Source: a virus (taxonomy: Duplodnaviria > Heunggongvirae > Uroviricota > Caudoviricetes). Taken from it: DNA of 19,561 bases. Position numbers and translations under genes: made by a program. Location: IMG/VR virus record IMGVR_UViG_2585427752_000010; one strand, written 5' to 3'. Below the pieces are notes generated by a model. That model saw nothing but the letters and a program-made list of their open reading frames with translations, searched no databases and was not told the origin of the DNA. The first letter of the stretch is position 1, and each line of letters starts with the position of its first letter. Below are positions 3,083 through 19,561 of this stretch, one piece after another.

Positions 3083-3916
3083 ATGAACATCGAAAAAAGC
3101 AGATTAATTTCTGAGGCTGCCCCTCATCTGAACGCCTCTCTGAGCACAATTAACGGTAATGAATTTGCCGCAATTGTCCCGGTTATTCCTGGTCATATCG
3201 GTGGGCGTGAAACCAATATTGTTAGCGCAAAAGCGTTACACAAAGCGTTGGGCGTGGGAAAAGACTTCTCTACATGGATCACTGATCGCATCTCTGAATA
3301 TGACTTCACCATTGGGCACGATTACTCAGTCCATAAAACAATTTCCCCAAATTTGGGGAAAAGCCCGAATGGCGCGGCTTACAGCAAGATAAAGCACTCT
3401 GGCAGACCCGGCAAAGACTATCTGTTAAGTGTCGGAATGGCGAAAGAACTGGCAATGATCGAACGCAATGATCAGGGTCGCGCTATCCGCCGTTATTTCA
3501 TCCAGTGCGAGGAAGAATTACAGCGTAGCGTGCCTGAAATCGCCGCCCGCTATCGTCGCCAGCTAAAAGCCCGTCTCAGTGCCGCAAACAACTTTAAGCC
3601 AATGTGCGATGCGCTGAATATGGCCCGTGCCGAGATGGGTAAAACGACGCAGCAACACCACTACACAAACGAGAGCAATATGATTTCTCGTATCGTTCTT
3701 GGTGGGCTAACTGCTAAGCAGTGGGCGCGGATAAATGGCTATTCTGGCGAACCTCGCGACCATATGAACGCAGAACAGCTTGAGCACCTCTCATATCTCG
3801 AAAGCACCAATATCACGTTAATTGATATGGGCATGGAATATGAGCAGCGCAAAGGAGACCTCCCCCGCCTGTCGCAACGCTGGCTCGCCAAGCGTCTGGA
3901 GGTGGTCAATGTCTAA
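3083..3916 (+). CDS. phage antirepressor-like protein (Ant/KilAC-type, tentative)
   Basis: 277 aa; GGAG RBS 7 nt upstream; segment AKALHKALGVGKDFSTWITDRI resembles antirepressor N-terminal domains; assignment is from recall, not a search. Confidence 0.6.
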   Translation: MNIEKSRLISEAAPHLNASLSTINGNEFAAIVPVIPGHIGGRETNIVSAKALHKALGVGKDFSTWITDRISEYDFTIGHDYSVHKTISPNLGKSPNGAAYSKIKHSGRPGKDYLLSVGMAKELAMIERNDQGRAIRRYFIQCEEELQRSVPEIAARYRRQLKARLSAANNFKPMCDALNMARAEMGKTTQQHHYTNESNMISRIVLGGLTAKQWARINGYSGEPRDHMNAEQLEHLSYLESTNITLIDMGMEYEQRKGDLPRLSQRWLAKRLEVVNV

Positions 3917-4091
3917 GCCAACAGGAACACCACAACCACAAAAACGCTACAAAGATGCCCACGGAGCACTCGTTACTGTCGAAAGCGTGTCTCACAACCG
4001 AGTGACGTTTTATCGCGACGGGTATCAATCGCCATGCGTACAACCGCTGGCGCGTTTCATGAAGGAGTTCGCGGAGGTTAACAAATGCTAA
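3909..4091 (+). CDS. small hypothetical protein (60 aa)
   Basis: ATG at 3909 overlaps the stop of the upstream gene; sequence MSKPTGTPQPQKRYKDAHGALVTVESVSHNRVTFYRDGYQSPCVQP... looks protein-like. The ORF track's 3822 start lies inside the upstream gene and was not used. Confidence 0.5.
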   Translation: MSKPTGTPQPQKRYKDAHGALVTVESVSHNRVTFYRDGYQSPCVQPLARFMKEFAEVNKC

Positions 4092-4522
4092 CCGTCCAGA
4101 AGAAGACATTTTCACTGGCTGGTATGTCGCCAAAATCCAGCAATATGACGGCAAAGTCAGGCATTAATACAGCAGATACAAGCAAAGTTTATCATTTGCT
4201 GGTGGTCGGAACGGATGCCTTAACCATATCAGAAATCTCGGGCGATGATATTAGCATTGAGAAGGTCAGCGGCTGCGCCAGAGAATTTCTGGTCGTAGAT
4301 GACCTGTTCTGCTCGCGTAGTGACTCCACAAAAACATTCGTCCACGCGCGTGACGTTAACGAAATGAGCGCGATGTACTGTGCTTCTGGTTCTTCCAATA
4401 GTGAGTTTTCGGAGTCCATAAAAAAGAGCTTGCCGTTATGCGGCAACACGGTTTATGGTTATAAGGCACCTCATAAAACGGGTGCCGGGTTTCGCAGCCC
4501 GGAAATGTACGAGGCGACACAT

Positions 4523-4544
4523 GACGCGCCGAGCGTCTTTTTTT
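4523..4544 (+). terminator. putative intrinsic terminator inside the ambiguous 4085-4746 region
   Basis: GACGC-gccga-GCGTC hairpin followed by TTTTTTT. Confidence 0.35.
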
Positions 4545-4746
4545 GTGCCGTTAGCCAGACTCACACTTTTTTCAGTGATGTGGTTATAATCCGCGTCGCT
4601 TGCAAAATTATGGTGGGCTGGACAGGGCAGCCGAAAGGCTGGCCGGTTTCCTTGTACGCCGGTACTGCGAACTCTGTTCAGTCCACCACCAGCGAGTTTC
4701 GCAGCTCCGGTGGTGGGAAGAATTCCCAGTACAAGGAGGCTGCCAC

Positions 4747-4941
4747 ATGCTGGCTACTACCCCTACCCAAAAACCGCAATTTATCTGGATTATCGCCGCA
4801 GTTCGCCGCGATTGCCCGACAATTACCGCCAAAATTCATCATATTGCTGCCGAGTCTGAACGCGATGCTCGCCGTTCTCTGGTGCGCGATCACGTCTGCT
4901 TTTTTGCTGGTCGTATCCGCATGGAGGTGGCACATGATTAA
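4747..4941 (+). CDS. small hypothetical protein (64 aa)
   Basis: ATG at 4747 preceded by AGGAGG with 7-nt spacing; product MLATTPTQKPQFIWIIAAVRRD... is charged and protein-like; stop overlaps the next start. Confidence 0.5.
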   Translation: MLATTPTQKPQFIWIIAAVRRDCPTITAKIHHIAAESERDARRSLVRDHVCFFAGRIRMEVAHD

Positions 4942-5152
4942 AACCTACGATGTGCATATGGATCCCCTCGAACGCACAAGCCAGATCATCACACTGACAG
5001 AAGTGATTAATGACATTCTGGTGAGCAACTCTCCCTCACGAGACGAAAAACTGAAGGCGTTACTCGCGATATTGGATCTCGCCGTTCGTGACGTTCATTT
5101 CCTGCTGGAAGGTGGACAAATGCCATGCAAAACGGGGGCAACCAATGAATAA
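4934..5152 (+). CDS. small hypothetical protein (72 aa)
   Basis: ATG at 4934 preceded by GGAGG; product MIKTYDVHMDPLERTSQIITLTEV... is protein-like; it is the in-frame 3' portion of the long 4085..5152 ORF. Confidence 0.55.
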   Translation: MIKTYDVHMDPLERTSQIITLTEVINDILVSNSPSRDEKLKALLAILDLAVRDVHFLLEGGQMPCKTGATNE

Positions 5153-6764: not shown

Positions 6765-7128
6765 AAATGCAGAAATGGCGCTTAGCTCCGCAATCGGAGA
6801 GCAGGTGGCAAAGATTGCTGGTGCTGTGTGGATTCATAACCTTCATTCTACTGGTGAAGAGAAAATGGCAATTCAGACGCCAGAGGGACGCACCATTACT
6901 ACATCTCTGAAGCCGTCAGATGTTTGTGATCTGATTTGCGCATTCATGTACCCAGCAATGAGGACTGTCCACGGCGATAAGTGGAAACTTGCGACAACCG
7001 CTGAATTTGATATGTGGCTAAACAATGATGGCATGCTGACTGATTACGGAATAACCAAGTGGCAGATGCTGGTTAGCCATATCGCAAACGCTATAGACCA
7101 CGTGGGGTACGGTGATGCGAAACATTGA
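6757..7128 (+). CDS. hypothetical protein (123 aa)
   Basis: ATG at 6757 with GGAGG RBS; 3' end overlaps the primase start. Confidence 0.7.
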   Translation: MRENAEMALSSAIGEQVAKIAGAVWIHNLHSTGEEKMAIQTPEGRTITTSLKPSDVCDLICAFMYPAMRTVHGDKWKLATTAEFDMWLNNDGMLTDYGITKWQMLVSHIANAIDHVGYGDAKH

Positions 7129-9466
7129 TCTTATCCGTCAGGTTATCAGTGCGTCTGAAAACAACTGGCCTCATGTGCTGGGCTGCCTGAACATAAATGT
7201 CCCTGACTCTCCGCGCCGTCATGCTCCCTGCCCTGCATGTGGGGGCAAAGATCGATTCCGGTTCGATGACAACGGGCGCGGTAGCTTCATCTGTAATCAG
7301 TGCGGCGCTGGTGATGGGCTGGATTTAATTAAACGCGTAAATAACTGCGACACAACAGAGGCGGCGCTTCTTGCCGCTGATGTTCTGGGTATTGATTACC
7401 GGACAACGGAAACACCAGAAGCCACCAGCCAGAAACGGGAACAACTGGAAACCGAGCGCCAGCGACGCGAACAGGAGCGCCTGAAAAGGGCAGAGAAGGA
7501 CGAACAACAAAGACGGGATACGTTTTCCCGTCAGTTTGATGACATGCGCAGAAAGGCTGTAAACGGCAAATCTGATTATCTGGTTGCGAAAGGGGTAGGT
7601 GATTTTACATTCCCCGTGTTGCCCGATGGATCTCTGTTGCTGGCGCTGGTGGATAAATCCGGCGCAGTCACAGCAGCACAGACTATTACCTCACATGGTG
7701 AAAAAAGACTCCTGACAGGTTCGGCAAAGCGGGGGGCATATCACGCCATAAACGCACAGAAACGACCTCACAGCATCATAATTGCTGAGGGGGTGGCTAC
7801 CGCCCTGTCGTGCCATTTAATTCGCCCTGACGCAATGACAGTGGCAGCAATCGACGCTGGCAACCTGTTGCCAGTAGCGGAAGTCATGCGCAGAACATAT
7901 CCGCAGGCACAAATAATCATTGCTGCAGATAACGATCACCAGCAAGGAGACTCAGAAAGTGGAGGGATCAACACGGGGAAAGATGCCGCAGAGAGGGCCG
8001 CTATTTCCGTAGCTGGCAGGGTGTCTCTGCCACCGACTGACTATAAAGCCGACTGGAACGACTATCACCAACAACACGGGCTGGCGGCAGCCACAGCAGC
8101 ATTTAAAGATTCGATGTACCAGCCACGGGGGAAAGGGGCGCAGGTGAAAAATCACAAACAGTCAGTCGGGGCGCTGAATGAGATCAGTTCTGGCGAGGTG
8201 TTAAGCGATGATGAAATTGCTGTCCTCGAAGAAATCAACCGGACGTTTACGCATGTCACCATCGGCGGGAAACACAAGGTGGGGTCGCTAAAGCCTTCTC
8301 AAACCGGCGGTGTATCGCACGTTTTCGAGGATTTATCACAATTTCAGCATTATTTTCATCATAAACCGAGAGTCGCCAGAAAGCTGGCGGGATCGGCGTG
8401 GCTGTCATGGAGTGGGAAGAACTACAAGCCAGGAGGCGTAGGATTTTATCCAGTACCAGACAAATGCCCTGACGATGTTTTTAATCTGTATGAGGGGCTG
8501 GCACTGGAACCAATTGAAGGAGATTGCACGGTATACCTTAATCACCTGTTGCAGGTTGTCTGTGCCGGTAATGAAGAGGCATACCAATATCTTATCCAGT
8601 GGATGGCGCACATTATCCAAAAGCCTGATGAAAAACCGTCCGTGGCAATCGTGATGAAATCTGTCCCGGGCACAGGGAAAGGCACAACGGTTAAACCGCT
8701 GCTGCAAATACTGGGGCAGTACGCCGCCCACATTAACGGGGCGGGACATATTTCAGGGCGCTTCAATTCAATACTTGCTAACAAGCTACTGGTATTTGCT
8801 GACGAAGTGACGATCCACAAGCCGTCTGAAGCTGACAGACTTAAAGCGATTATTAGCGAACCGACGTTTAACCTTGAGCGCAAGGGAATTGATGCTGAAC
8901 CAATGCCGAATTTTGCCCGGTTGATATTTGCCAGTAACAGCACACAGGTATTACAGGCAGGGATAAGAGAGCGTCGCTATCTCGTGCTTGAGCCATCTCC
9001 TGAAAAAGCACAGAGCCGGGAGTATTTTGATCGGCTGTACAGTTGGCTTAATGATGGCGGTGCCGCAAAGTTGCTTTGGCATCTTAAAGGGGTGGATCTC
9101 TCAGGTTTTGACCCTCAACGAGCGCCACAGACCGATGCCTTACGTGAAGAAATCTTGCTGGGGCTGTCTGGCGTTGAATTGTTTCTTTATGGCGAGCTAA
9201 TCAATGAACCTCCGTTTAATGGCGAAGTCCGTTTGTTTGCAAAGGATATGGTTAGTCGGTTTGTAGCGTGGTCGCTTGAGCGTGGGGAAAAGCTTAAAGA
9301 ACCAGCTGCCAGATCACTACTGGGTAAATCACTTGCACAAATGGGGCTGGTGAAGCATGGAAGACCAGACCGAGGGAATGGCGTGTTCTACGAACTACCA
9401 GAGGTCGGAGTTCTACAGGCTGCGTTTGCCCGTCTGATCGGTATGGGGGGTTATGATGTTTTTTAA
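7112..9466 (+). CDS. P4-alpha-like bifunctional primase-helicase
   Basis: 784 aa; N-terminal zinc ribbon CPACGG...CNQCG; TOPRIM-like motifs IIIAEGVATA and IIAADNDH; C-terminal P-loop NTPase region with Walker A-like PGTGKGTT and Walker B-like LLVFADEV. Start may be GTG 7112 or ATG 7115. Confidence 0.9.
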   Translation: MMRNIDLIRQVISASENNWPHVLGCLNINVPDSPRRHAPCPACGGKDRFRFDDNGRGSFICNQCGAGDGLDLIKRVNNCDTTEAALLAADVLGIDYRTTETPEATSQKREQLETERQRREQERLKRAEKDEQQRRDTFSRQFDDMRRKAVNGKSDYLVAKGVGDFTFPVLPDGSLLLALVDKSGAVTAAQTITSHGEKRLLTGSAKRGAYHAINAQKRPHSIIIAEGVATALSCHLIRPDAMTVAAIDAGNLLPVAEVMRRTYPQAQIIIAADNDHQQGDSESGGINTGKDAAERAAISVAGRVSLPPTDYKADWNDYHQQHGLAAATAAFKDSMYQPRGKGAQVKNHKQSVGALNEISSGEVLSDDEIAVLEEINRTFTHVTIGGKHKVGSLKPSQTGGVSHVFEDLSQFQHYFHHKPRVARKLAGSAWLSWSGKNYKPGGVGFYPVPDKCPDDVFNLYEGLALEPIEGDCTVYLNHLLQVVCAGNEEAYQYLIQWMAHIIQKPDEKPSVAIVMKSVPGTGKGTTVKPLLQILGQYAAHINGAGHISGRFNSILANKLLVFADEVTIHKPSEADRLKAIISEPTFNLERKGIDAEPMPNFARLIFASNSTQVLQAGIRERRYLVLEPSPEKAQSREYFDRLYSWLNDGGAAKLLWHLKGVDLSGFDPQRAPQTDALREEILLGLSGVELFLYGELINEPPFNGEVRLFAKDMVSRFVAWSLERGEKLKEPAARSLLGKSLAQMGLVKHGRPDRGNGVFYELPEVGVLQAAFARLIGMGGYDVF

Positions 9467-9495
9467 TATAGTCTTTTTACAAGAAGATCGTTTTT

Positions 9496-9600
9496 ACCTG
9501 TACCACCTATACCACTTTGCTAATTCAGCATTAAAAACAATGTGTTATAGTGGTACAGGTCAATATCTTACCTATACCAGACCTGTACCACCTATACCAT
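9496..9600. repeat. iteron cluster 1 (putative origin-type repeats) just downstream of the primase
   Basis: ACCTGTACCACCTATACCA at 9496-9514 and 9581-9599, inverted partial copy GTGGTACAGGT at 9550-9560, and partial copy CCTATACCAG at 9571-9580. Confidence 0.6.
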
Positions 9601-9642
9601 TAACAAACGCATTTCTTCTGGCTGGCTGAGAGGGAACAACCA

Positions 9643-9873
9643 ATGATGAGCACACCATTTTACAAAGTGCGCCAGTTAGCTTCTTCCTCTGGCTGGCAGC
9701 TACGGTTTGAGGGGCGTTCAGACTGGCTACCCATTGCGGCATGGGCGAATGTTGAAATGTGTATTGACGGCGATACCGTTGAAATCATTATTCCCTGCGT
9801 GGCAAGTCGGGACGGCTGTATAGAGCCAACAGATATGGCAGCAGAAATCAGAGAGGTAAAACATGAGCAATAA
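9643..9873 (+). CDS. hypothetical protein (76 aa)
   Basis: ATG at 9643 preceded by GAGAGGGAA; stop overlaps the next gene's start. Confidence 0.6.
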   Translation: MMSTPFYKVRQLASSSGWQLRFEGRSDWLPIAAWANVEMCIDGDTVEIIIPCVASRDGCIEPTDMAAEIREVKHEQ

Positions 9874-10600
9874 CTATTGCATACCGCAGGGAATGACCAG
9901 AACGGAGCGCGAAGAATTAAAAAGTTTCGCTACACAGTGCGGGAATGCTGGCGACATCCAAAGTCTGGAACGCACTTTAATTATGATTGCGCACTGGATG
10001 CGTCAGGGGCAAAGGGTTTCATTTACTGAATATGCCAGCCAGTGGACAGAGGCACAGCGCGAACGGAGCGACGGTAATCACTCAACACCCGAAATGGCGA
10101 AGCAATGGCCTTTCAGTGGTAAACGCTGTATCAGTCCCGGTGGTTCAGATTATTACCCTGCTGGTGTGGGAGATGAGCCATGTTGTGACGAGACTGAAAT
10201 CCGCCACGCAGTGACAGTAATTACCGCTGAATACCCACAATTTAACCTTGACGGACTGGCGCTCCACAACCGGAATGCGGACTGGGAAAACCCGCTTGAT
10301 AACCCGTCATTTATCGTATCGGCGAAAAGCTGCCTGAGATGGATCAGAGACAACGGGATGAGTAATGCCCAGATTGAGAGCTTCCCGCAGGATAACCCCA
10401 CATCTGACACGTTGAAGCATGAAGTGGAGCGATATAACCAGATAAACCACCAGCACAGTGATCACCCGCACTATATCCCCAACGGAGCATTTATTGCGGC
10501 GATGGTGGCAAGCGGCTACAAGGTTAAGCCAGCGGGAAGAATGAACGCATTTTTCAATATTTCAAAAAAGGGATTATGTGCTGCTATGGGTAAAAATTAA
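9863..10600 (+). CDS. hypothetical protein (245 aa)
   Basis: ATG at 9863 preceded by GAGAGG; Cys- and His-containing product with no motif recognisable by eye. Confidence 0.7.
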   Translation: MSNNYCIPQGMTRTEREELKSFATQCGNAGDIQSLERTLIMIAHWMRQGQRVSFTEYASQWTEAQRERSDGNHSTPEMAKQWPFSGKRCISPGGSDYYPAGVGDEPCCDETEIRHAVTVITAEYPQFNLDGLALHNRNADWENPLDNPSFIVSAKSCLRWIRDNGMSNAQIESFPQDNPTSDTLKHEVERYNQINHQHSDHPHYIPNGAFIAAMVASGYKVKPAGRMNAFFNISKKGLCAAMGKN

Positions 10601-10605
10601 ATAAA

Positions 10606-10709
10606 TGGTACAGGTCTGTACAGGTGGGGAGAGGTCATTTTTACCCACCTGTACCACCTGCAGGCCGCGTCACACAAGGGTTTGTGACATGGTGGTACAG
10701 GTGGTACAG
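10606..10709. repeat. iteron cluster 2 (same GGTACAGG/CCTGTACC family)
   Basis: TGGTACAGGTCTGTACAGGTGGG (10606-10628), inverted CCCACCTGTACCACCTG (10644-10660), TGGTGGTACAGGTGGTACAGC (10689-10709), plus a GTCACA-N8-TGTGAC inverted repeat (10669-10688). Confidence 0.6.
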
Positions 10710-11074
10710 CAAAAACAGCGATTTTCTTTATAAGGTATGTTTTGCTCATCTGGCAGACGGAGGTATTCGCTGCGGTTTGGCACATAGCCCAGAACAGCAA
10801 AGAGTTTTACGAGACTTTTGTAAAATCCAGTGTACAAGGGCGTGACGTTTTTGAAGGAGAGACCTACGAAATTTTCGTAGTTCAAAAAATAGCCTCTGAG
10901 ATGTTGTTATGCCTGTTCAGCAAACCATCCGCATAGCTGATCGCGAATCAAATTACCAATGGAGCCAGAAGCAAGGGCAGAACTGGAAAGCGCCTGCCGT
11001 GAAGAGTAATGCGACATCGTAAATATAGTTTTTAGAGTCCATAAAAAAACTGTCAAAACCTGACATACAGAACG

Positions 11075-11108
11075 ATGCCACCAGCTACTGAGCGGTGGCA
11101 TTTTTTTG
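11075..11108 (+). terminator. rho-independent terminator
   Basis: ATGCCACC / GGTGGCAT perfect 8-bp stem with 11-nt loop, followed by TTTTTTT. Confidence 0.65.
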
Positions 11109-11169
11109 TGCTATTTGTTTCATATTTTGCAATTACGATGATGAATATTGCGATTTGTGAAACTATAAT

Positions 11170-11189
11170 AACTGTTGTTTTATACAGTT
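11170..11189 (+). promoter_or_regulatory. LexA-box-like site (CTGT-N8-ACAG) between a TATAAT element and the operon's first RBS
   Basis: AACTGTTGTTTTATACAGTT: CTGT at 11172-11175, 8-nt AT-rich spacer, ACAG at 11184-11187; a consensus -10 TATAAT lies at 11164-11169 and the RBS AAGGGGG at 11192-11198. Confidence 0.4.
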
Positions 11190-11202
11190 CTAAGGGGGCG
11201 TT

Positions 11203-11364
11203 ATGGCTATTTCAGTAAAGCCGGTATTGATAAGTGAGAAGCAAATGGAAGCGATAAAGAAAATTCAGGAAGAGCAGCGTAAAAAATCAGGAATTGGAGT
11301 AGCGCCAACTCTGCATGAAATTGCTCGAGGGTTAATAGATAAGGCGCTGGCAGGCTGTATGTGA
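11203..11364 (+). CDS. small DNA-binding-like protein (possible ribbon-helix-helix), 53 aa
   Basis: Not in the ORF track (below its size cutoff). ATG at 11203 with strong RBS TAAGGGGGCG; product MAISVKPVLISEKQMEAIKKIQEEQRKKSGIGVAPTLHEIARGLIDKALAGCM has a strand-helix-helix-like pattern. Confidence 0.45.
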   Translation: MAISVKPVLISEKQMEAIKKIQEEQRKKSGIGVAPTLHEIARGLIDKALAGCM

Positions 11365-11380
11365 AAATGGATGGCATCGC

Positions 11381-11842
11381 ATGGAACTAAAATTTATTGA
11401 TAACCCTGTGCGATTACAGGCCTTTCTTAACGATCCTGGCAATACCGAAAATATTGTTGAGCCGGGGCACACGTACTACATCAAGCCTGATGCGGTATAT
11501 CTCGGCATCTACGAAGGATTGGTGCTGGCTGGCGTTCATGAAGTGCGTAACTTCTGGCATAGCATTGTTGAATGCCATGCGGTGTACGACCCCGGATTCC
11601 GTGGTGAATATGCACTGCAAGGGCATCGATTATTCTGCAAATGGCTTCTCGAAAACTCACCATTCCTTAACAGCATCACTATGGTTCCTGACACCACGAA
11701 ATACGGACGGGCAATTATCCGTTTGCTTGGCGCTACCCGTGTTGGTCACCTTGATGATGCTTATATCAGATGTGGTAAACCCGTCGGCGTAACGCTTTAT
11801 CAGTTAACTCGGCAACAATATAAGGAATTCAGCGAATGTTAA
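11381..11842 (+). CDS. hypothetical protein (153 aa), second gene of the operon
   Basis: ORF starting 17 nt after the small gene; stop overlaps the next start (ATGTTAA). Confidence 0.75.
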   Translation: MELKFIDNPVRLQAFLNDPGNTENIVEPGHTYYIKPDAVYLGIYEGLVLAGVHEVRNFWHSIVECHAVYDPGFRGEYALQGHRLFCKWLLENSPFLNSITMVPDTTKYGRAIIRLLGATRVGHLDDAYIRCGKPVGVTLYQLTRQQYKEFSEC

Positions 11843-12513
11843 TTACCCATATAGCTCATAAACATCTCAATCGTGCCGTATACGAAAAAGGCGGTGATGG
11901 TGGTGCCTCTAAAGCTCAGGCGAAGGCCCAGCAGCAGGCAATTGATTTGCAGCGCGAGCAGTGGAATACGGTGATGAATAATCTCAAGCCGTATGCAGAA
12001 GTCGGATTGCCTGCTTTACAACAACTACAAGGACTGATGACTCTGGAAGGGCAGAATAAAGCCGCGAATGATTTCTTTGGTTCTGGTTTATATAAAACAC
12101 AGGCAGATCAGGCCCGTTATCAGAACCTTGTCTCAGCAGAAGCTACCGGGGGGCTTGGCTCAACAGCTACCAGTAACCAGTTATCTTCCATTGCGCCCAT
12201 GCTTTATAACAATTGGCTTAGTGGGCAAATGCAAAATTATGGAAACCTGCTAAATGTCGGGATGAATGCGGCATCAGGACAGGCAACGGCAGGGCAAAAC
12301 TACGCCAATAATACCGGACAACTCTTGCAGGGGCTTGGCGCTATTCGTGCAGGTCAGGCGCAGCAGCCATCCAGTCTTGCGCGTGGTATTGGTGGGGCAG
12401 CATCAGGCGCTTTAGCGGGTGCGCAACTTGGTTCCGTTGTTCCTGGAATAGGTACTGCGGCAGGCGCTATTGGTGGTGGGCTTATTGGTCTTGTTGGGGG
12501 GCTTGGATTCTAA
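11836..12513 (+). CDS. Gly/Ala/Gln-rich protein with C-terminal glycine-zipper hydrophobic segment (225 aa)
   Basis: AAGGAA RBS; low-complexity Q/A/G/N-rich body; C-terminus GIGGAASGALAGAQLGSVVPGIGTAAGAIGGGLIGLVGGLGF has repeated GxxxG spacing typical of membrane-inserting glycine zippers. Confidence 0.75.
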   Translation: MLITHIAHKHLNRAVYEKGGDGGASKAQAKAQQQAIDLQREQWNTVMNNLKPYAEVGLPALQQLQGLMTLEGQNKAANDFFGSGLYKTQADQARYQNLVSAEATGGLGSTATSNQLSSIAPMLYNNWLSGQMQNYGNLLNVGMNAASGQATAGQNYANNTGQLLQGLGAIRAGQAQQPSSLARGIGGAASGALAGAQLGSVVPGIGTAAGAIGGGLIGLVGGLGF

Positions 12514-13826
12514 TGGCGACATGGCAACTTGGCGGGCTGCCTAGCATGGCACCGCAAAATGATAATGCTCCTCGTTCTTCCGTTCCTCAGCCTGTGCAGT
12601 ATCAGCAGCAGCCAAACGTAGGTTTAATGGCGCTACAGGGGCTAAGAGGCGTTGCTGAGATTAATCAGCAGGCGCAAATTTCCCAGCAGCTAAAAGAATA
12701 TCAGGCACGGTTGGGTAGTGCGGTAGCTAATAATGATCGTGTTGGCGTGCAGAAGTTAATGGCCCAGTATCCCCAGTTTATGGCTGATTCTCAAAAACAG
12801 ATGGGATTCATTGATGCTGAGCAAAATCGGCAGACCGCTGACGCTGCCATGAATCTGCGTCTTGCGTCACAAACTGGAGATCCACTGACCATGCAGAAGG
12901 CCATTCAGCAGGCAAATCCAGTATTACAGCGATTTGGTCTTCCTGCTGAAGAGGTTTATCAGTCTTGGCAGAATGACCCACAGGAATTCAACAGAATCAC
13001 TGACCTCATCCACCTCCATGCTGATCCAAATAGTTACTTTAGTGTTCAAGAGAAGCAGCAAGGGCAGAGTATTGCACAGCAGAACGCAGATACATCTGCA
13101 TATAATGCTCAGGTTAATGCGGAACAGGGTAATCGGCGTCTCGATATGGAGCAGTTCAAAGCCCTATCCGATAACCAGCTACGCACGAGAGAAATGGTTC
13201 TGAAAGCACGACTTGGACGTGCTCAAAATGACATCGAGAGAGACAAGCTCAATGCTGAACTGAGCAAGGTACAGCAGGCGAAAGTGGAGAAGATGAACGA
13301 TAAAATTAATACTGTTGTAGGTAACATCGACTCCTTGAACTCTGCGCTTGAAGTGGGTCATGAACTGGCGGGAATTGTAGGGAAACATCCTTCGGCCGTT
13401 ACCCGTTCGCAGAACTATAACCCCCTGACGCTGGGGTTTGGATTCCTTCCTGATGTAGCAGAAGACACACGAAGCCTACGCGCCAAAGCTGATGAATACA
13501 ACCTAAAGGTTATTCTGCCTAGCCTCAAAGGGACTTTTGGCTCTAACCCAACCGAAGGGGAAAGGGCTGCCCTTATGCAATCTCAAAATGGCATTAAGTC
13601 AGCAACCAGCAATGAGGCATTTTTGCGAGAGTTGAATAAAGCGCAGGACGTAATTATTCGAATGCAGAAACGACAGATTGCCGGGCTCGGTATTCCTGTA
13701 ACCAAATCTAAGGACGAAGAAACTGATACCAAAATGCTGTTGCAGGATCCTTCTCTGGTTAAGGATTATGTGACCGCACATGGCTATCTGCCGGAAAGTT
13801 ACTATCAGGCAAAACTTAAGGGATAG
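12513..13826 (+). CDS. Gln-rich, probably coiled-coil protein (437 aa)
   Basis: ATG overlaps the upstream stop (TAATG); Q-rich N-terminal half and charged, heptad-like central region. Confidence 0.8.
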   Translation: MATWQLGGLPSMAPQNDNAPRSSVPQPVQYQQQPNVGLMALQGLRGVAEINQQAQISQQLKEYQARLGSAVANNDRVGVQKLMAQYPQFMADSQKQMGFIDAEQNRQTADAAMNLRLASQTGDPLTMQKAIQQANPVLQRFGLPAEEVYQSWQNDPQEFNRITDLIHLHADPNSYFSVQEKQQGQSIAQQNADTSAYNAQVNAEQGNRRLDMEQFKALSDNQLRTREMVLKARLGRAQNDIERDKLNAELSKVQQAKVEKMNDKINTVVGNIDSLNSALEVGHELAGIVGKHPSAVTRSQNYNPLTLGFGFLPDVAEDTRSLRAKADEYNLKVILPSLKGTFGSNPTEGERAALMQSQNGIKSATSNEAFLRELNKAQDVIIRMQKRQIAGLGIPVTKSKDEETDTKMLLQDPSLVKDYVTAHGYLPESYYQAKLKG

Positions 13827-13828
13827 CA

Positions 13829-16549
13829 ATGATGGCACAACTGACAGAAAAACAGAAAGCCTATTCCCGTCATCTCGATGAAAAATATGGTTTCCCATCA
13901 GGGACGATGGAAACATTAGTTGGCAATGAATCTAGTGGTAACGGAAGTGCCGAGTCACCGAAAGGAGCTAGAGGATTTGCTCAACTGATGCCCTCAGTAA
14001 TGAGTGATGCTGGTTATCGTGGAACAGATCCGCGCTCACTGCCATTTGAAAAGCAAATGGATATCGCAGCAAACCATCTCAATAAAGGAATGAAGCGATT
14101 TGGTGATATAGGTATGGCATTGGCTGGGTATAATTCTGGCTATGCTCGTATTAATGCCGTAAGAAACGGTAAATCTACACTGCCAGATGAAACGGCTAAT
14201 TACGTAAGTAAATTTGCAGATGCCGGAATAATCCCTGATGACAGTGAAATCTTGCAGTTTGCACAAACCAGTCAACATCGCAATCTTCAGCAGCCTGACT
14301 ACTCAGAGCTTGATAAAGAAATCTCTCAGGTGGGAGATATTTCTGCATGGGAAGCAAAACGTCAGCAATTTAAGAACATAGAAGCAGGACTACCAACAGC
14401 CAGTTCATGGGAGCAGAAAAGAGCTCAGTTTCTCGCCGATGAAAATGCCGGGGAACCGCAGCAGCAAGTAGCCAAGTCTAACCTTAATCCTGAGATGGAA
14501 TATCTTTCGCCAGGACTGAAAGCTGCGCCAGAGCAGATGGCCAGAGGGATTGCTAATATACCGTTTGATGTAATGGACGCAGGCGTGGGGGTAGTCAATG
14601 CGGCGCAATCAGCCGGAGCATGGGCAGCTCAGAAGCTTGGTGTGGGTGATGGCACATACACGCCCATATCACCTGTCTTTCGCCCAGTAGACCAACCTAC
14701 AGATCCATACGCGCAGGCTGGTGAGCAGCTAGCACCTTACCTTATTACAGGATTAGGTGCAGGAAAGGCAGCTACCGCAGCTTCTTCAGTTGCCAACGCT
14801 CCACGTGCTGAACGTGCGGCCACAAAGGTGGCTAGTATGTTGGCAGAAAACCTGCCAGGTACATTGGTGAACGCCCAAAAGAACGGGCAGATCAGCCCAG
14901 AAGACCTAGCAAAAGAGACAGGTATTGGCCTAGCAGGATCGCTAGGAGCACGCGCTTTAATAAAGAGCGGACAGACAGCCAGTGACGTAATGCGAGATGT
15001 ATTGCGGAGTAATACAAATCAATCAGGCCATGTGTTAGGGGCAGCAAATACTCTGGAAACCGCCAATGATGTATCGAAAGCAGCGCGTTCTGCCGTAGGC
15101 CGAGAGCATATCGCATCGCAGGCATCAAACGTCAGAGATGATGTCGCTAAGGCGGCGAAAATTACTGGTATTAATATCAACACCCTGACGCCTGGAATGC
15201 GCTCAGGTAGTCGTGGAATTGCCCAAGCAGAAGGTGTTCTGGCATCAACTCCTGGGAATGTTCAGGATGCTCACCTTACGGCCTTCAATGAAATATCCTC
15301 AAAGTTGAATAAGCAGTTGTCTGATTTCGGTGCTGAGTCTGGAAGCGCATCAGAAAAAAGCGCAGCAATTAAAGAGCGCATCATCGCGAGCCTCAGTGAT
15401 ATGAAAACAGCAGAGAATATGGCATGGGCAGAACTGCGAAGCACGATGCCACGCGAAAGGATGAAAATGAGTAATGGGATGGCTGTCGTCCAAGCAGAAA
15501 AAGCAGCCAATGTTCCACTCAGCCCGGAGATGAAACAGTTTCAGGCTGCCAACAACCAAGGTGGCGGCATAACCTTCGACGGGATGAAGGCATGGCGTGC
15601 TAAGTTTGCTGATGCTGAACAAGCAAACACCCGGGCAGGTAAGGCCAATGCCGCCCGGATTGCCGGAGAAATGCGCAGAGCTATCACTGATGACATGCGC
15701 ATCATGGCTGAAAAAGGAAACTTCCTCACAGAATGGCAGAAAGCTAACGATCTCTCTAAAAGTTACATTATCGCCAAACAAAATGCCGAATCTGTTTTTG
15801 GTCGAGATCTCGCATCAGACGCTATGGTAAGAAAAGGTGCCGATACGCTTAAGGCATCCGCAAACACTGGAACGGGAGCTTTTCACCGTCTTATCTCCGC
15901 GCTGCCGGAAGCAGAACGCCAACCAGCAATAGCATCTATTCTTCAGCATGCTGTGGCGCAGGGAGAGAAGGGAGGAATCGGTGAAGAATCTGGTATCCAG
16001 TATTTTGCCAAGCTCATGACCCAGCAGAATGTAAACGCCATCAGTCGTCATGCGCCAGATCTCGGTAGAATGATGAAAGAGTTCGGTGTACTCGCTAAAG
16101 CCAGCACCAGACCGCAGCGATACGTAGAGCGCACGGGAAGAACAACTGAGGCTCTCAAAACGCTCGATTCAGGCCTTCCAAAGATCGTCGGCGTGATTAT
16201 GAACGGAGTTCAACAGTCAGGTGCGATCGCTGGAGGCTTTGGCGGTGGTGTAATTGGTTCGATTAGTGGTTTGGTTGCTGGTGGCGCGCTGAGAAATACT
16301 GTGGCTAAGATTGGGGCGACAAGAAGTGGTAGATATGCGATAGAGAAAGCCGTTCAGGAAGCTACAAAAGCAGTGCGCGCAGGGGCATCACCAGCAGCGA
16401 TCGCCGCAGCAGAGAAACGATTTTCGGCCAATAAAATTGCCATGAAAGCAATTCGTGATGCCGTTGGGGCTGAAGAATTCGTGAAACTGACAAGGGCCGG
16501 GATTGTAGCTACCCTCAGTGGCATGAAAGATGTTAGCGAATGGGAATAG
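13829..16549 (+). CDS. large protein with N-terminal lytic transglycosylase (SLT) domain and C-terminal Gly-rich hydrophobic segment (906 aa)
   Basis: N-terminal NESSGNGSAESPKGARGFAQLMP fits the SLT catalytic ES...GA.G..QLMP pattern and ALAGYNSGYARI fits the AYN.G motif; long Ala-rich body; near the C-terminus GGFGGGVIGSISGLVAGGAL. Confidence 0.85.
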   Translation: MMAQLTEKQKAYSRHLDEKYGFPSGTMETLVGNESSGNGSAESPKGARGFAQLMPSVMSDAGYRGTDPRSLPFEKQMDIAANHLNKGMKRFGDIGMALAGYNSGYARINAVRNGKSTLPDETANYVSKFADAGIIPDDSEILQFAQTSQHRNLQQPDYSELDKEISQVGDISAWEAKRQQFKNIEAGLPTASSWEQKRAQFLADENAGEPQQQVAKSNLNPEMEYLSPGLKAAPEQMARGIANIPFDVMDAGVGVVNAAQSAGAWAAQKLGVGDGTYTPISPVFRPVDQPTDPYAQAGEQLAPYLITGLGAGKAATAASSVANAPRAERAATKVASMLAENLPGTLVNAQKNGQISPEDLAKETGIGLAGSLGARALIKSGQTASDVMRDVLRSNTNQSGHVLGAANTLETANDVSKAARSAVGREHIASQASNVRDDVAKAAKITGININTLTPGMRSGSRGIAQAEGVLASTPGNVQDAHLTAFNEISSKLNKQLSDFGAESGSASEKSAAIKERIIASLSDMKTAENMAWAELRSTMPRERMKMSNGMAVVQAEKAANVPLSPEMKQFQAANNQGGGITFDGMKAWRAKFADAEQANTRAGKANAARIAGEMRRAITDDMRIMAEKGNFLTEWQKANDLSKSYIIAKQNAESVFGRDLASDAMVRKGADTLKASANTGTGAFHRLISALPEAERQPAIASILQHAVAQGEKGGIGEESGIQYFAKLMTQQNVNAISRHAPDLGRMMKEFGVLAKASTRPQRYVERTGRTTEALKTLDSGLPKIVGVIMNGVQQSGAIAGGFGGGVIGSISGLVAGGALRNTVAKIGATRSGRYAIEKAVQEATKAVRAGASPAAIAAAEKRFSANKIAMKAIRDAVGAEEFVKLTRAGIVATLSGMKDVSEWE

Positions 16550-16699
16550 ACGCTCTAACTAACAAAACCATAATAGCCAAGGACGGCATACTGATATTGA
16601 GCCAACTATCAAAATTCCATATCACATTACGGGCCTGTGGCTTACATTCGCTTACAGTGATGATAATTTATAACCACGCAATTCTTAGGTGAGATTATC

Positions 16700-17398
16700 A
16701 TGATTAAAAATCTTCTTTTAATATTATCCCTGTCATTATTGGCTGGATGCGTACAAAAACCGTTAGTAACGGTCAATGCTTTATCTTCCGGGCAATCTGT
16801 CGGTAAGAAGTTCTTGATCATCCCCGCAAGCCAAGAACTTTGGAACACCAAACAGATTGAATACACTCAAATAGCTACGGTAGTAGCCGCCAGTTTATCA
16901 AGCCAAGGATATACACAAGTTAAAGATGAAAAATTGGCTGACCAGGTAATTCTCTTGAACTTTTTGAGAAGCGGGGCCATTTCAAATACTCGTAATGTAA
17001 CCATCCCAATATACGGGCAAACTGGTGTGAGCTCAGCAACAACGTACGGAAACTCGAACACCACGTTCAATAGTTATGGTGGTGGCTACGGTACAGCTAA
17101 TATCACTGGAACGGCAACAACAGTTTATACGCCTACTTATGGAATTACTGGCGCGTATAACACAACTGTGACGGACACGTTCTACGGCGCAGGGGTGATA
17201 CTCCAGTCGTTTGATGCCAAGGCTTATCTCAATAATAGGCAGATTAATATGTTATGGAAAGTTGGTAGCTCAGTCGTCTCGCAACAGTCTGATGGAATTG
17301 CTGATTACAAGGGGTTGGCGAGAATAGCCGCTAGCTATGCCGGGAAAAATACAGAAGGTGATATAACTTTTAATGTTGACCCTAAAGCACCAAATTAA
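16700..17398 (+). CDS. lipoprotein, Thr/Gly/Tyr-rich (232 aa)
   Basis: Signal peptide MIKNLLLILSLSLLAGC with lipobox LAGC; AGGTGA RBS; mature part rich in T/G/Y/N repeats; lower GC than the upstream operon. Confidence 0.8.
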   Translation: MIKNLLLILSLSLLAGCVQKPLVTVNALSSGQSVGKKFLIIPASQELWNTKQIEYTQIATVVAASLSSQGYTQVKDEKLADQVILLNFLRSGAISNTRNVTIPIYGQTGVSSATTYGNSNTTFNSYGGGYGTANITGTATTVYTPTYGITGAYNTTVTDTFYGAGVILQSFDAKAYLNNRQINMLWKVGSSVVSQQSDGIADYKGLARIAASYAGKNTEGDITFNVDPKAPN

Positions 17399-17405
17399 CT
17401 AATAA

Positions 17406-17427
17406 GCCCGGTACGCCGGGCATTTAT
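17406..17427 (+). terminator. weak terminator-like hairpin after the lipoprotein gene
   Basis: GCCCGG-tacg-CCGGGC perfect 6-bp stem followed by a T-poor tail (ATTTAT). Confidence 0.35.
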
Positions 17428-17562
17428 GCCCCTATTATTCATGAATCGCTTTTTCTAGAAGGTATGCGACAAACGTTAAGTGACATTGCCTACACATTCG
17501 GGGCGGGATTTCAAATCCGCTCCCAGTTGATGGGGTCGTTACAGTACGCGCATATCCGCTTT

Positions 17563-17633
17563 ATGTGAAACAGGAAGATTTTTCTGATATCACTGCCACA
17601 GCAAAACACCAATTTCGTGACCAGTACGCGCAC
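17563..17633. repeat. copy A of a ~70-bp repeat family (copies B at 17838-17867 and C at 19473-19543)
   Basis: A and C align over ~70 bp (ATGTGA.A..GGA.G.TTTTTC.GA.ATCACT ... CAATTTC..GA.CA.TACGCGC) with small indels; B is a shortened copy (CTGATAT-TTTGCGACAAGTACGCGCGCG); a fourth core CAGTACGCGC lies at 17542-17551. Confidence 0.6.
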
Positions 17634-17895
17634 GATGGAGGGGAGTACCATAAAACTGTTCTCTACATAAGTCAGAGTGGTGGTGATGTGTTGATTATCG
17701 GCGTATATGCGCACAGGACGCGCTATGACGATGTTTTATGCGGGTACACCAATCACATGTATCTGGTGTGATAAATCGCGTTACATGACCTCTCATGTTG
17801 TGCTGGTGGTTATCACGACGTTCTGAATCTGGCCTTTGCCTGATATTTTGCGACAAGTACGCGCGCGTAGCATCGACAGCATACACATTGGATAT

Positions 17896-18117
17896 TCATT
17901 TTGTGACCAATGCGATAAGTAGCGGGATAAGAATTGATAAAATCAACAGGCCGATGATCCACTTTTGATTTTCACTGGCCTTATCTCTATTTTCATCAAT
18001 CTTATCAATAATTCGACGCTCCAAGCCGTGCATATCACCGCGAATGGCAATCATCTCATTGCGAACATCCGAGAAGTGGTTGGCTTGATGTTCAATGTGT
18101 GGCGTTCTGCCTTTCAT
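17896..18117 (-). CDS. small tail-anchored membrane protein (XhlA/holin-like topology, tentative), 73 aa
   Basis: ATG at 18117 (minus strand) with GAGGA RBS; charged N-terminal region followed by a single C-terminal hydrophobic helix WIIGLLILSILIPLLIALV. Confidence 0.6.
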   Translation of the reverse strand: MKGRTPHIEHQANHFSDVRNEMIAIRGDMHGLERRIIDKIDENRDKASENQKWIIGLLILSILIPLLIALVTK

Positions 18118-18196
18118 GCCTGATCCTCACCCATCGTCACCACCTGCTGGTGTATAAAGGTATTGGCGCAAGCGGCTTTCCTATGGGCACTCATGT

Positions 18197-18652
18197 TTAT
18201 ACGCTGACCTTACAATCAATCACCGCTTTTAACTTTTCAGCATTGCTTCCCTGACGCTTCCACGCGCTGTAAATATCTTTATCCCACGCTTTACCAGCTT
18301 TTGTTTGATAGCCTGCTTCATTGATCCGTTCAGCTATCACACGCCCATTATCAAATCCCTGTTGGATGGTATCGGCAATGATCTTTATAACTGCCGTTTC
18401 GTTATATGGCTTTGGTGGGATGTTCGGCTTTCCGGCAATAAGCGACGCAGCGGCTTTTTCCATGCGCTCCACCAGCCCAAGCATTCGTGAATCAATAGAC
18501 TTTTCCGGCTGTCTCAGCTTCATGCGAATCGCATCAACAAGCCAGGAGGTTTTATCCCCTCCAGAAGCGAGAACAGACCGATTAAACTCATCCTGCAATT
18601 CAGATGGGATGCGGAACGCGACCAGATTAGATTTGCTCATTGCAAAGACCAT
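18197..18652 (-). CDS. RHH-like DNA-binding protein (151 aa, or 147 aa from the alternative start at 18640)
   Basis: N-terminus SNLVAFRIPSELQDEFNRSVLASGGDKTSWLVDAIRMKL has a strand-helix-helix pattern; no clear SD for either candidate start. Confidence 0.65.
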   Translation of the reverse strand: MVFAMSKSNLVAFRIPSELQDEFNRSVLASGGDKTSWLVDAIRMKLRQPEKSIDSRMLGLVERMEKAAASLIAGKPNIPPKPYNETAVIKIIADTIQQGFDNGRVIAERINEAGYQTKAGKAWDKDIYSAWKRQGSNAEKLKAVIDCKVSV

Positions 18653-18911: not shown

Positions 18912-19199
18912 ATGATAAGGGACAGGAAAGCTGAAGAGCTGGAGTCAAAAGGGCTATACCGGAGAGCTGCCGCACGATGGGCAGAAGTCATGATGCTGGC
19001 AGATGGCGATAAAGAACGTGAACATGCAGCAAACAGACGTTCTGAATGTATCCGTAAGGCGGCACGCCCACCAGCAACTACAGACAGATTCGGAGATTTA
19101 AGACAGGCAGTTAAGCGGACTCATTCGGCTCTTGGTATGGATGAGGAAGCGAGAGGGTACTTCAGGCGTTATCGCGATAAAGATTGCCAGAGACAGTAA
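18912..19199 (+). CDS. PerC-family transcriptional regulator-like protein (95 aa)
   Basis: GAGAGG RBS; N-terminus MIRDRKAEELESKGLYRRAAARWAEVM resembles PerC/Pch regulators of E. coli prophage-like elements (recalled, not searched). Confidence 0.6.
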   Translation: MIRDRKAEELESKGLYRRAAARWAEVMMLADGDKEREHAANRRSECIRKAARPPATTDRFGDLRQAVKRTHSALGMDEEARGYFRRYRDKDCQRQ

Positions 19200-19372: not shown

Positions 19373-19561
19373 CATGCCAGCCAACGCAATTTCTCGTTGG
19401 CGAAAATATCAGGTATTTACTGAACGAACGGTCTACCAGTCTGTTCAGTTACCAGTTGCATATGGCTGTTTCATGTGAGAACGGAGGTTTTTTCGGACAT
19501 CACTATTGGGTACAGCAATTTCACGAGCAATACGCGCGCGCAGGACAACAAGCCTGAACAT

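Follow-up and report, generated by a model that had tools for sequence, protein, structure and literature searches.

Why would a DNA element without any recognizable gene for a capsid or a tail carry the proteins through which a phage virion delivers its DNA? The question is raised by the viral record IMGVR_UViG_2585427752_000010 (Caudoviricetes), a stretch of 19,561 nucleotides (nt) that we refer to as the window, in which six open reading frames (ORFs) at positions 11203–17398 had been described, in a sequence-only reading made without database searches, as an orphan operon resembling an ejection cassette of podoviruses. We consider it probable that the window is a phage satellite of the EcCIMP1 type with a P4-related backbone, a parasite of P22-like podoviruses that would load its own set of ejection proteins into helper procapsids and recruit the helper terminase by mimics of pac sites.

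The operon had not been matched to any described system, a view that has to be revised. EcCIMP1 is a phage-inducible chromosomal island (PICI) of Escherichia coli MP1 that is mobilised by the P22-like phage vB_EcoP_Kapi1 (Pick, Stadel, Raivio, ISME J 2025; PMC11773190), and it is a near-twin of the window, all six cassette proteins being 98.7–100% identical. Its excision requires Kapi1 together with alpA and its own integrase, Kapi1 lysates transduce the island at low frequency but not a chromosomal marker, and EcCIMP1 raises the superinfection immunity of Kapi1 lysogens and improves lysogen fitness in competition with other lysogens (PMC11773190). The same authors labelled three of the cassette genes "DNA transfer" or DUF2824-like and proposed a packaging role. 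The island family itself is already published, and what appears to be new is the recognition that the cassette makes up a complete set of ejection proteins, the evidence that this set is conserved, under selection and exchanged in modules within satellites, the leader gene, the conserved LexA-like box and the pac-like array. In full-text literature searches and in large surveys of satellites, we found no account of ejection proteins being encoded by a satellite.

The ejection-protein cassette and its relation to helper proteins

All six ORFs were confirmed with their coordinates and sizes, the first five being tightly coupled on the plus strand (the first two are 16 nt apart, the next two junctions overlap by 7 nt and 1 nt, and 2 nt separate the last pair) and the sixth following 150 nt further on the same strand. 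By homology, the operon is a P22-type block gp14-gp7-gp20-gp16. Behind an intact, island-specific leader ORF of 53 amino acids (aa) (11203–11364) come a 153-aa homolog of P22 gp14 (11381–11842; Pfam PF11039, DUF2824, E 7e-62; phrog_651, E 1e-66), a 225-aa homolog of gp7 with a C-terminal glycine zipper (11836–12513; PF25688 over aa 16–223, E 6.6e-73; phrog_598), a 437-aa homolog of gp20 representing an island-type allele (12513–13826; PF16928, Inj_translocase, E 3.6e-22; phrog_917 and phrog_2534) and a 906-aa homolog of gp16 (13829–16549; phrog_770, "DNA transfer protein", over aa 187–862, E 1.8e-120). The N-terminal SLT domain that had been noticed in the last of these is borne out by PF01464 (aa 15–117, E 1e-12), its motifs ES, GFAQLMP, AGYNSG and ETANYV all being readable. 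A gene for a 232-aa lipoprotein (16700–17398; lipobox LLAGC, Cys17) occupies the sieA slot, and the gene order is that of P22 genes 14-7-20-16-sieA, with the DUF2824 gene first. Identity to the P22 proteins amounts to 23% for gp14, 56% for gp7, 28% for gp20 (N-terminal part only) and 46% for gp16 over 76 aa only; PF26808 was recorded on gp16 orthologs in two further loci of our survey (L010 and L016), and neither the gp20 profile nor gp16 gave a match among PDB sequences. Within the P22-type set, gp7 is the first ejected channel protein and gp20 the periplasmic tunnel protein, while for P22 gp14 we found no paper describing its function, the PHROG and RefSeq label being "head morphogenesis".

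No virion gene accompanies this block, as had been stated from the sequence: the cassette does not lie directly 3' of a tail-needle gene, Pfam and PHROGs scans of the window found no capsid, portal, tail, terminase or lysis gene, and the RefSeq annotation of the full island in E. coli G749, which carries a nearly full-length copy (a 20.7-kb island with yicC/yicG flanks), lists no capsid, portal, tail or terminase gene. The proposed resemblance to T7 gp13–gp16 fared less evenly. It stands as a functional parallel, and the SLT domain, and only this domain, matches a PHROG of the T7-gp16 type (phrog_342), but homology to T7 was rejected, since BLASTP and phmmer comparisons of T7 gp13–gp16 with all six proteins returned nothing and the families are those of P22.

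A gp16 with an SLT domain is not confined to islands. Phages Dewey and Huey share the architecture (47% identity over 97%), as do complete P22-like prophages or phage contigs, loci of this kind beyond the islands including, besides the two phages, L016 (11335–14049) and L015 (11307–13934). A review describes P22-like phages as being without the transglycosylase (PMC8954989); judged by the domain architecture of gp16 in Dewey, Huey and P22-like prophages, that statement is to be corrected.

The relation to the known helper of EcCIMP1 changes along the operon. Identity to the Kapi1 proteins drops from 83% for gp14 and 58% for gp7 to 26% for gp20 and 24% for gp16, and ordinary blastn detects common DNA in gp14 and the start of gp7 only. 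According to a 2026 preprint (PMC13622523), the tail hub gp10 serves as the template on which gp7*, gp20 and gp16 assemble in sequence, and the gradient mirrors this order (gp10, gp7*, gp20, gp16). On the order given there, parts that touch the helper would be conserved, while those that reach the periplasm and inner membrane of the recipient would be free to differ; thus, the gradient has the look that would be expected of working parts loaded in trans. Furthermore, very divergent foreign ejection proteins are known to work in P22 virions (PMC10883804).

Candidate control and packaging signals

If the cassette serves the transfer of the island, how would it be switched on, and how would island DNA enter helper heads? 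Upstream of the leader gene, an intrinsic terminator (11084–11107, plus strand; a GC-rich stem with a T-run) closes the replication unit and would insulate the cassette promoter, and a hairpin with a T-run stands at the equivalent place in diverged islands. It is followed by two ATTGCAAT-like palindromic boxes (11127–11133 and 11147–11154), a candidate operator kept in all island lineages examined, for which the 53-aa protein and AlpA are candidate binders. Next come a -10 box TATAAT (AAACTATAAT; 11164–11169, plus strand) and, directly after it, the LexA-like box CTGTTGTTTTATACAG (11172–11187, plus strand), which had been pointed out earlier and is the sole perfect CTGT-N8-ACAG in the window. 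The box stands between the TATAAT and the first ORF's ribosome-binding site, 16 nt ahead of that ORF, and overlaps the promoter. A single perfect site per 19.5 kb is not significant alone; its position is kept, with a varying spacer, in four of the seven diverged island lineages, and one more has a CCAG variant. The box reads CTGTTGTTTTATACAG in E. coli, CTGTATCGTTATACAG in Leclercia, CTGTATAAACATACAG in Buttiauxella and CTGTGTCTATATACAG in L020, the CCAG variant belonging to L014. It is reasonable to suppose from this arrangement that the cassette is under SOS control, which would time it with the RecA-dependent induction of a P22-like helper.

Just 3' of the cassette lies an array of terS-derived, pac-like DNA motifs (17543–17864, plus strand). 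Motif A (..GACMAGTACGCGC) is present in three copies ending at 17551, 17631 and 17864, and motif B, the 22-mer GAAGATTTTTCTGATATCACTG, at 17574–17595 on the same strand, with a further motif B at 19484–19505. The 9-mer AGTACGCGC occurs in the window at 17543, 17623 and 17856 only, where about 0.15 copies would be expected by chance. All seven island lineages have both motifs, interleaved and oriented like the cassette (as tandem units of ~124 nt in Leclercia and Buttiauxella), and the array is 3' of the cassette in every diverged island but that of Buttiauxella (L008), where antA stands on one side of it and ash on the other. The P22 record annotates a pac site inside terS, GAAGATTTATCTGAAGTCGTTA, to which motif B is similar: 16 of the 22 positions agree in the window, 19 in L014, L020 and L021, and all 22 in L010, where the copy (15171–15192) is flanked by ~55 nt of similarity to gene 3. 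Taken jointly, the island loci match at 16/22 or better in 22 places, where shuffles would give 0.5, and the empirical pattern of functional P22 pseudo-pac sites (PMC11226127) has two full matches each in L007, L008 and L010, where 0.05 are expected. Motif A agrees with an 18-mer inside the terS of Kapi1 at 18 of 18 positions in L008 and at 17 in the window, a match that emerged only by k-mer search and not by ordinary blastn; its 12-mer core occurs once in 25 kb of Kapi1, in terS, and three times in the EcCIMP1 locus.

As the units of several islands contain stop codons, the array is composed of DNA elements and is not a gene. An ORF at 17565–17771 was considered as a TerS-like gene and rejected, the equivalent units of EcCIMP1 and other islands having stop codons. 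The motifs look as if they mimic pac regions from two types of terminase, which would explain how the island is packaged, and they also hint that phages whose TerS is of the P22 type may serve better as helpers than Kapi1 does.

From these features we infer a course of events that comprises SOS control, virion loading, packaging from the array and exclusion by the lipoprotein. DNA damage or helper induction would de-repress the LexA-guarded promoter, and the late operon (11203–16549) would supply gp7, gp20 and SLT-gp16 as the channel, gp14 as an assembly factor and the 53-aa protein; the satellite ejection proteins would be produced alongside the late proteins of the helper and loaded in trans into procapsids that the helper has built. 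The array at 17543–17864 would recruit the helper terminase, and island concatemers would be packaged by headful. In the next cell, the helper tail hub would template satellite gp7, gp20 and gp16 in turn, giving a trans-envelope channel for island DNA, with the SLT domain cutting peptidoglycan on delivery. The sequence-only reading had named a satellite-encoded envelope-penetration module as one of its options, and this is the one that the evidence favours.

Several points weigh against such a course. The LexA-like box is degenerate in two lineages (L010 and L021), and alpA of EcCIMP1 is induced by the helper, not by DNA damage (PMC11773190). Motif B of the window departs from the empirical pseudo-pac pattern at one position, and that motif A serves as a pac site is conjecture, because the pac site of Kapi1 is unmapped. 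The entry of satellite proteins into virions is itself something that we infer, and since procapsids are filled before the DNA, helper virions should receive satellite proteins too; nevertheless, Kapi1 titres are unaltered by EcCIMP1, and Kapi1 transduces it only rarely, at about 5e3 per ml (PMC11773190). With such low transduction, the system may be inefficient, or Kapi1 may not be the natural helper.

The same facts bear on the explanation that competes best, although we regard it as unlikely, namely that the island proteins poison the helper, as mismatched or dominant-negative channel parts or by titration of gp14 or scaffold, lowering the infectivity of helper progeny to the gain of the host population rather than of satellite transfer. 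Satellites commonly interfere with their helpers, the gp20 and gp16 of the island are far from those of Kapi1 (24–26%), loading before the DNA would make the foreign proteins unavoidable for helper virions, and the advantage of EcCIMP1 lysogens over other lysogens would be accounted for. However, Kapi1 titres are not reduced, divergent ejection proteins function in heterologous P22 virions (PMC10883804), PADLOC gave no match for the cassette or accessory proteins, and the helper-facing parts (gp14, 83%, and gp7, 58%) and the four SLT motifs have all been retained, as would sooner be expected of working parts than of poison.

Exchange and conservation across islands

Is the cassette a fixed property of these islands, and is it maintained? 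Comparison with a type-2 island (L006) at the same chromosomal site places the blastn breakpoints of an exchangeable module at 12674–17499 (plus strand), comprising gp20 from codon 55, gp16 and the gene in the sie slot. Island types differ at this module, while the rest of the backbone is 96–99% identical, and the 53-aa protein, gp14 and gp7 of the type-2 island are 99–100% identical to those of the window; it has another gp20, a gp16 without SLT domain, and a SieA-like gene on the opposite strand. Among 5,426 complete E. coli genomes, 72 carry the gp20-gp16 type of the window at >=99% identity, ~187 further ones share the first 161 bp of gp20 only and then diverge, and the cassette junction is present in about 4.8%. 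In P22-like phages, gp20 and gp16 are likewise the most variable virion proteins, with foreign sets functioning in P22, and SieA escape has been mapped to the C-terminal portions of these two proteins (PMC10883804). We tentatively suggest, as a possibility that we hold with considerable doubt, that satellites swap in their own DNA-delivery channel: with gp20 and gp16, the targets of SieA-type exclusion, particles would gain an entry specificity unlike that of the helper, the gp20-gp16-sie module would act as lock and key in an arms race with three sides, and tandem arrays with two pac types would allow the use of helpers with different terminases. If so, island DNA could enter cells that exclude the helper, including those guarded by the island's own sie-slot gene.

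What occupies this slot differs between island types. In the window, no multi-pass inner-membrane protein of the SieA kind follows gene 16; the lipoprotein stands there. Its structural model (pLDDT 85) comprises an alpha/beta lipoprotein domain and a long beta-hairpin of ~40 residues, and the predicted fold is TraT/PelC-like by structural matches, a viral structure library having given no meaningful match. TraT forms a decamer and PelC a dodecamer, both solved as ring-shaped oligomers, and TraT mediates surface exclusion. Scored against the TraT family (Pfam PF05818), the lipoprotein reaches 13.7 bits (threshold 31), PelC and DUF4136 scoring equally or better, and by sequence it is not a member of that family. 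Given the TraT/PelC-like, ring-forming folds, the surface exclusion by TraT, the position in the sieA slot and the immunity phenotype of EcCIMP1, the lipoprotein is a candidate, and on the model a probable, exclusion factor of the outer membrane that the resident island would express. Type-2 islands encode at this place a SieA-like multi-pass membrane protein (L006, 19036–19650, minus strand; phrog_7745, E 2e-4; 29% identity with P22 SieA). In the account of the Casjens group, sieA was confined to P22-like prophages; this gene is an exception to that statement, since it lies in an island and not in a prophage.

These observations also bear on whether the cassette might act in the resident cell, as an SOS-induced envelope-breaching or bacteriocin-like device or as a cytoplasmic decoy against incoming P22-like phages, its products not being virion parts at all. 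The LexA-like box suggests helper-free expression on DNA damage, the SLT domain could damage the wall, and EcCIMP1 does add superinfection immunity. We nevertheless judge this explanation very improbable, given that gp14, gp7, gp20 and gp16 have no visible signal peptides and, in P22, reach the envelope only via virion ejection, that Pfam and PHROGs scans found no holin, lysis or toxin gene, and that the lipoprotein, or the SieA-like gene of type-2 islands, is a simpler cause of immunity. The SOS-induced bacteriocin entertained in the sequence-only reading found no support.

The leader gene appears to belong to the islands alone. No relative of the 53-aa protein was found by tblastn among 50,697 phage genomes, nor any match in Pfam, NCBIfam or PDB, and its family is restricted to Enterobacterales. 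An AlphaFold2 model (pLDDT 84) gives a coil at residues 1–11 with an extended N-terminus and helices at 12–29 and 37–52, a topology (coil, helix, helix) compatible with a ribbon-helix-helix monomer. The label "ribbon-helix-helix-like" that the protein had been given could not be confirmed: Pfam (even at E 10), NCBIfam and searches of PDB sequences and profiles gave no ribbon-helix-helix match, and a comparison with Arc/Mnt by hhalign had a probability of 0.1. The gene stays with the cassette even in its smallest form.

A scan of species-representative genomes yielded three loci only, and the contexts of the cassette were surveyed by exact-protein look-ups. Relatives of gp20 split by context. 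Those in islands are 49–89% identical to the window protein (Leclercia, 89%; three metagenomic contigs, 84%; a contig from the European Nucleotide Archive (ENA), 71%; Serratia marcescens, 69%; Buttiauxella, 62%; another ENA contig, 49%), those in complete P22-like phages or prophages 32–45% (Klebsiella electrica, 45%; Providencia, 38%; a 39.5-kb phage contig, 32%), and a search of sequenced phages gave full-length identities of at most about 28%. The phage copies lie directly 3' of the genes for portal, scaffold, coat, gp4, gp10 and needle, while the island copies are embedded in integrase/AlpA/Ash/primase islands, the 10 kb upstream of them being free of virion genes; homologous loci are thus not always part of complete prophage structural modules, the situation that the earlier reading had set against its own proposal. 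The cassette is tied to the same P4-type backbone in at least four genera at 40–89% protein identity, and all cassette ORFs are full-length in the island copies compared. Ratios of nonsynonymous to synonymous substitution rates (dN/dS) between island copies are 0.03–0.09 for all six cassette genes and 0.11–0.26 for backbone genes, values that are approximate because dS is saturated, a reservation that also counts against our interpretation. Most islands have the form 53aa-14-7-20-16; L010 carries 56aa-7-20-16 (9095–14022), without gp14, and L020 carries 53aa-20-16 (9822–14178), without gp14 and gp7 and with the 53-aa gene, gp20 and SLT-gp16 kept. The constant core of the cassette is gp20 and gp16.

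That the cassette is a functionless leftover of a P22-like prophage recombined into or beside a P4-like island, the podovirus remnant of the sequence-only reading, is scarcely credible: the genes are clearly P22-like in origin, in phage order down to the sieA slot and with patches of 86–96% DNA identity with phages, but this explanation is refuted by the arrangement of cassette plus backbone conserved across genera, by purifying selection on intact ORFs and by a leader gene, promoter and pac array that are island-specific, and EcCIMP1 is mobile.

The island and its place among known systems

Which element, then, carries the cassette? The earlier identification of a P4-like island holds, on the evidence of C4, IsrK, Ash, an alpha-type primase, AlpA and the integrase. 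Pfam and PHROG scans of the window delineate a P4-type backbone of integrase (1–1260), AlpA (2436–2639), AntA (3083–3916), DUF4222, Ash (4085–5152), a primase-helicase with zinc-ribbon, Toprim and DUF5906 domains (7112–9466) and, at the right island end, a PerC-family regulator (18912–19199; Pfam PF06069, E 3e-33), the located genes all being on the plus strand. To these are added, on the same strand, the int-alpA RNA (1269–1335), IsrK RNA (4466–4543) and C4 antisense RNA (4606–4693). C4 and IsrK are markers of the P4-type immunity region, and the long Ash ORF, which encloses both, may be partly an immunity RNA region of this type and not all coding. Five iteron-like GTACAGGTGG repeats, direct and inverted (10606–10709, 3' of the primase gene), form a probable replication origin; ORFs of 76 and 245 aa between primase and origin (9643–10600) have no informative family match and are missing from EcCIMP1. 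The PerC homolog of EcCIMP1 represses LEE1 (PMC11773190).

With integrase, AlpA and primase/replicase in an island of 10–20 kb devoid of structural and lysis genes, the window has the make-up of a PICI of the Gram-negative type, although "no structural genes" is true for shell and tail only, ejection proteins being virion components. The alpha-type primase, integrase, AlpA, Ash and CI-type (C4) immunity RNA are equally those of a P4-like satellite. No ORF scanned matched sid, delta or psu in Pfam or PHROG, the P2/P4 cos site was not found in the window, and genes for packaging redirection or capsid remodelling (Rpp, Ppi, TerS or Cpm-type) were not found by Pfam and PHROGs scans, the pac-like array being there instead.

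Variable accessory slots, possibly defence hotspots, are located in the int-alpA gap (1356–2321) and before perC (17876–18230). The content of the former varies by island (DUF6387 in L020), and the latter is occupied in G749 by ImmA/IrrE together with a hypothetical gene, in ETEC1721 by an Abi gene. In E. coli TUM17668 (L001, 12909–23196), the alpA-to-primase region is deleted, yet the cassette is intact and 99.7% identical, and a retron Ec67 gene and a DUF262 gene adjoin the island.

Satellites known so far steal capsids, change their size, divert terminases, or combine heads of their own with stolen tails. If the ejection proteins of the island ride in helper capsids, entry specificity and exclusion become traits set by the satellite. 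The "Type C" PICI/P4-like elements that surveys have set aside would then gain a recognisable family with a concrete hijack module, and the pac-like arrays would offer a testable explanation for packaging of the EcCIMP1 type, in which efficient helpers may have P22-type terminases and not that of Kapi1. The literature statement that sieA occurs only in P22-like prophages is corrected by the SieA-like gene of the islands.

The closest known system is EcCIMP1, which is like the window in gene content and order, the 53-aa gene, the lipoprotein, PerC and the pac-like array. It differs in having another integrase and site (tRNA-Thr between proA and yagU, versus the yicC/yicG type here) and a DUF927 instead of a DUF5906 primase, and the window has two extra ORFs after the primase. 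Its description did not identify the genes as an ejection-protein set, and the pac-like array and the LexA box were unreported. The late block of P22 comprises the same families in the same order, with an exclusion gene in the slot after gene 16, and mosaic variation in P22-like phages is concentrated in gp20 and gp16 as in the islands (PMC10883804). Unlike P22, the island cassette is not preceded by needle, gp10, gp4 and coat genes, it has its own promoter and a LexA-like box where P22 has a Q-antiterminated late operon, it adds the 53-aa leader gene, and its gp16 carries an SLT domain. T7 gp14, gp15 and gp16 are functional equivalents, namely an outer-membrane pore, a periplasmic tunnel and an inner-membrane protein with N-terminal lytic transglycosylase (PMC8954989), that have no detectable sequence similarity to the cassette outside the SLT domain. 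TraT of F-like plasmids has a fold like that predicted for the island lipoprotein, whose sequence score is below the Pfam threshold. With P4 and P4-like satellites the window shares the integrase, an AlpA/Vis-type regulator, Ash, an Icd-like protein, the alpha-type primase-helicase, and the C4 (CI-type) and IsrK RNAs. P4, however, has sid, delta, psu and the P2/P4 cos site, which the window is without, and depends on a P2-like myovirus, whereas the helper of the island would be a pac-type podovirus and its candidate hijack module an ejection-protein cassette together with a pac-like array.

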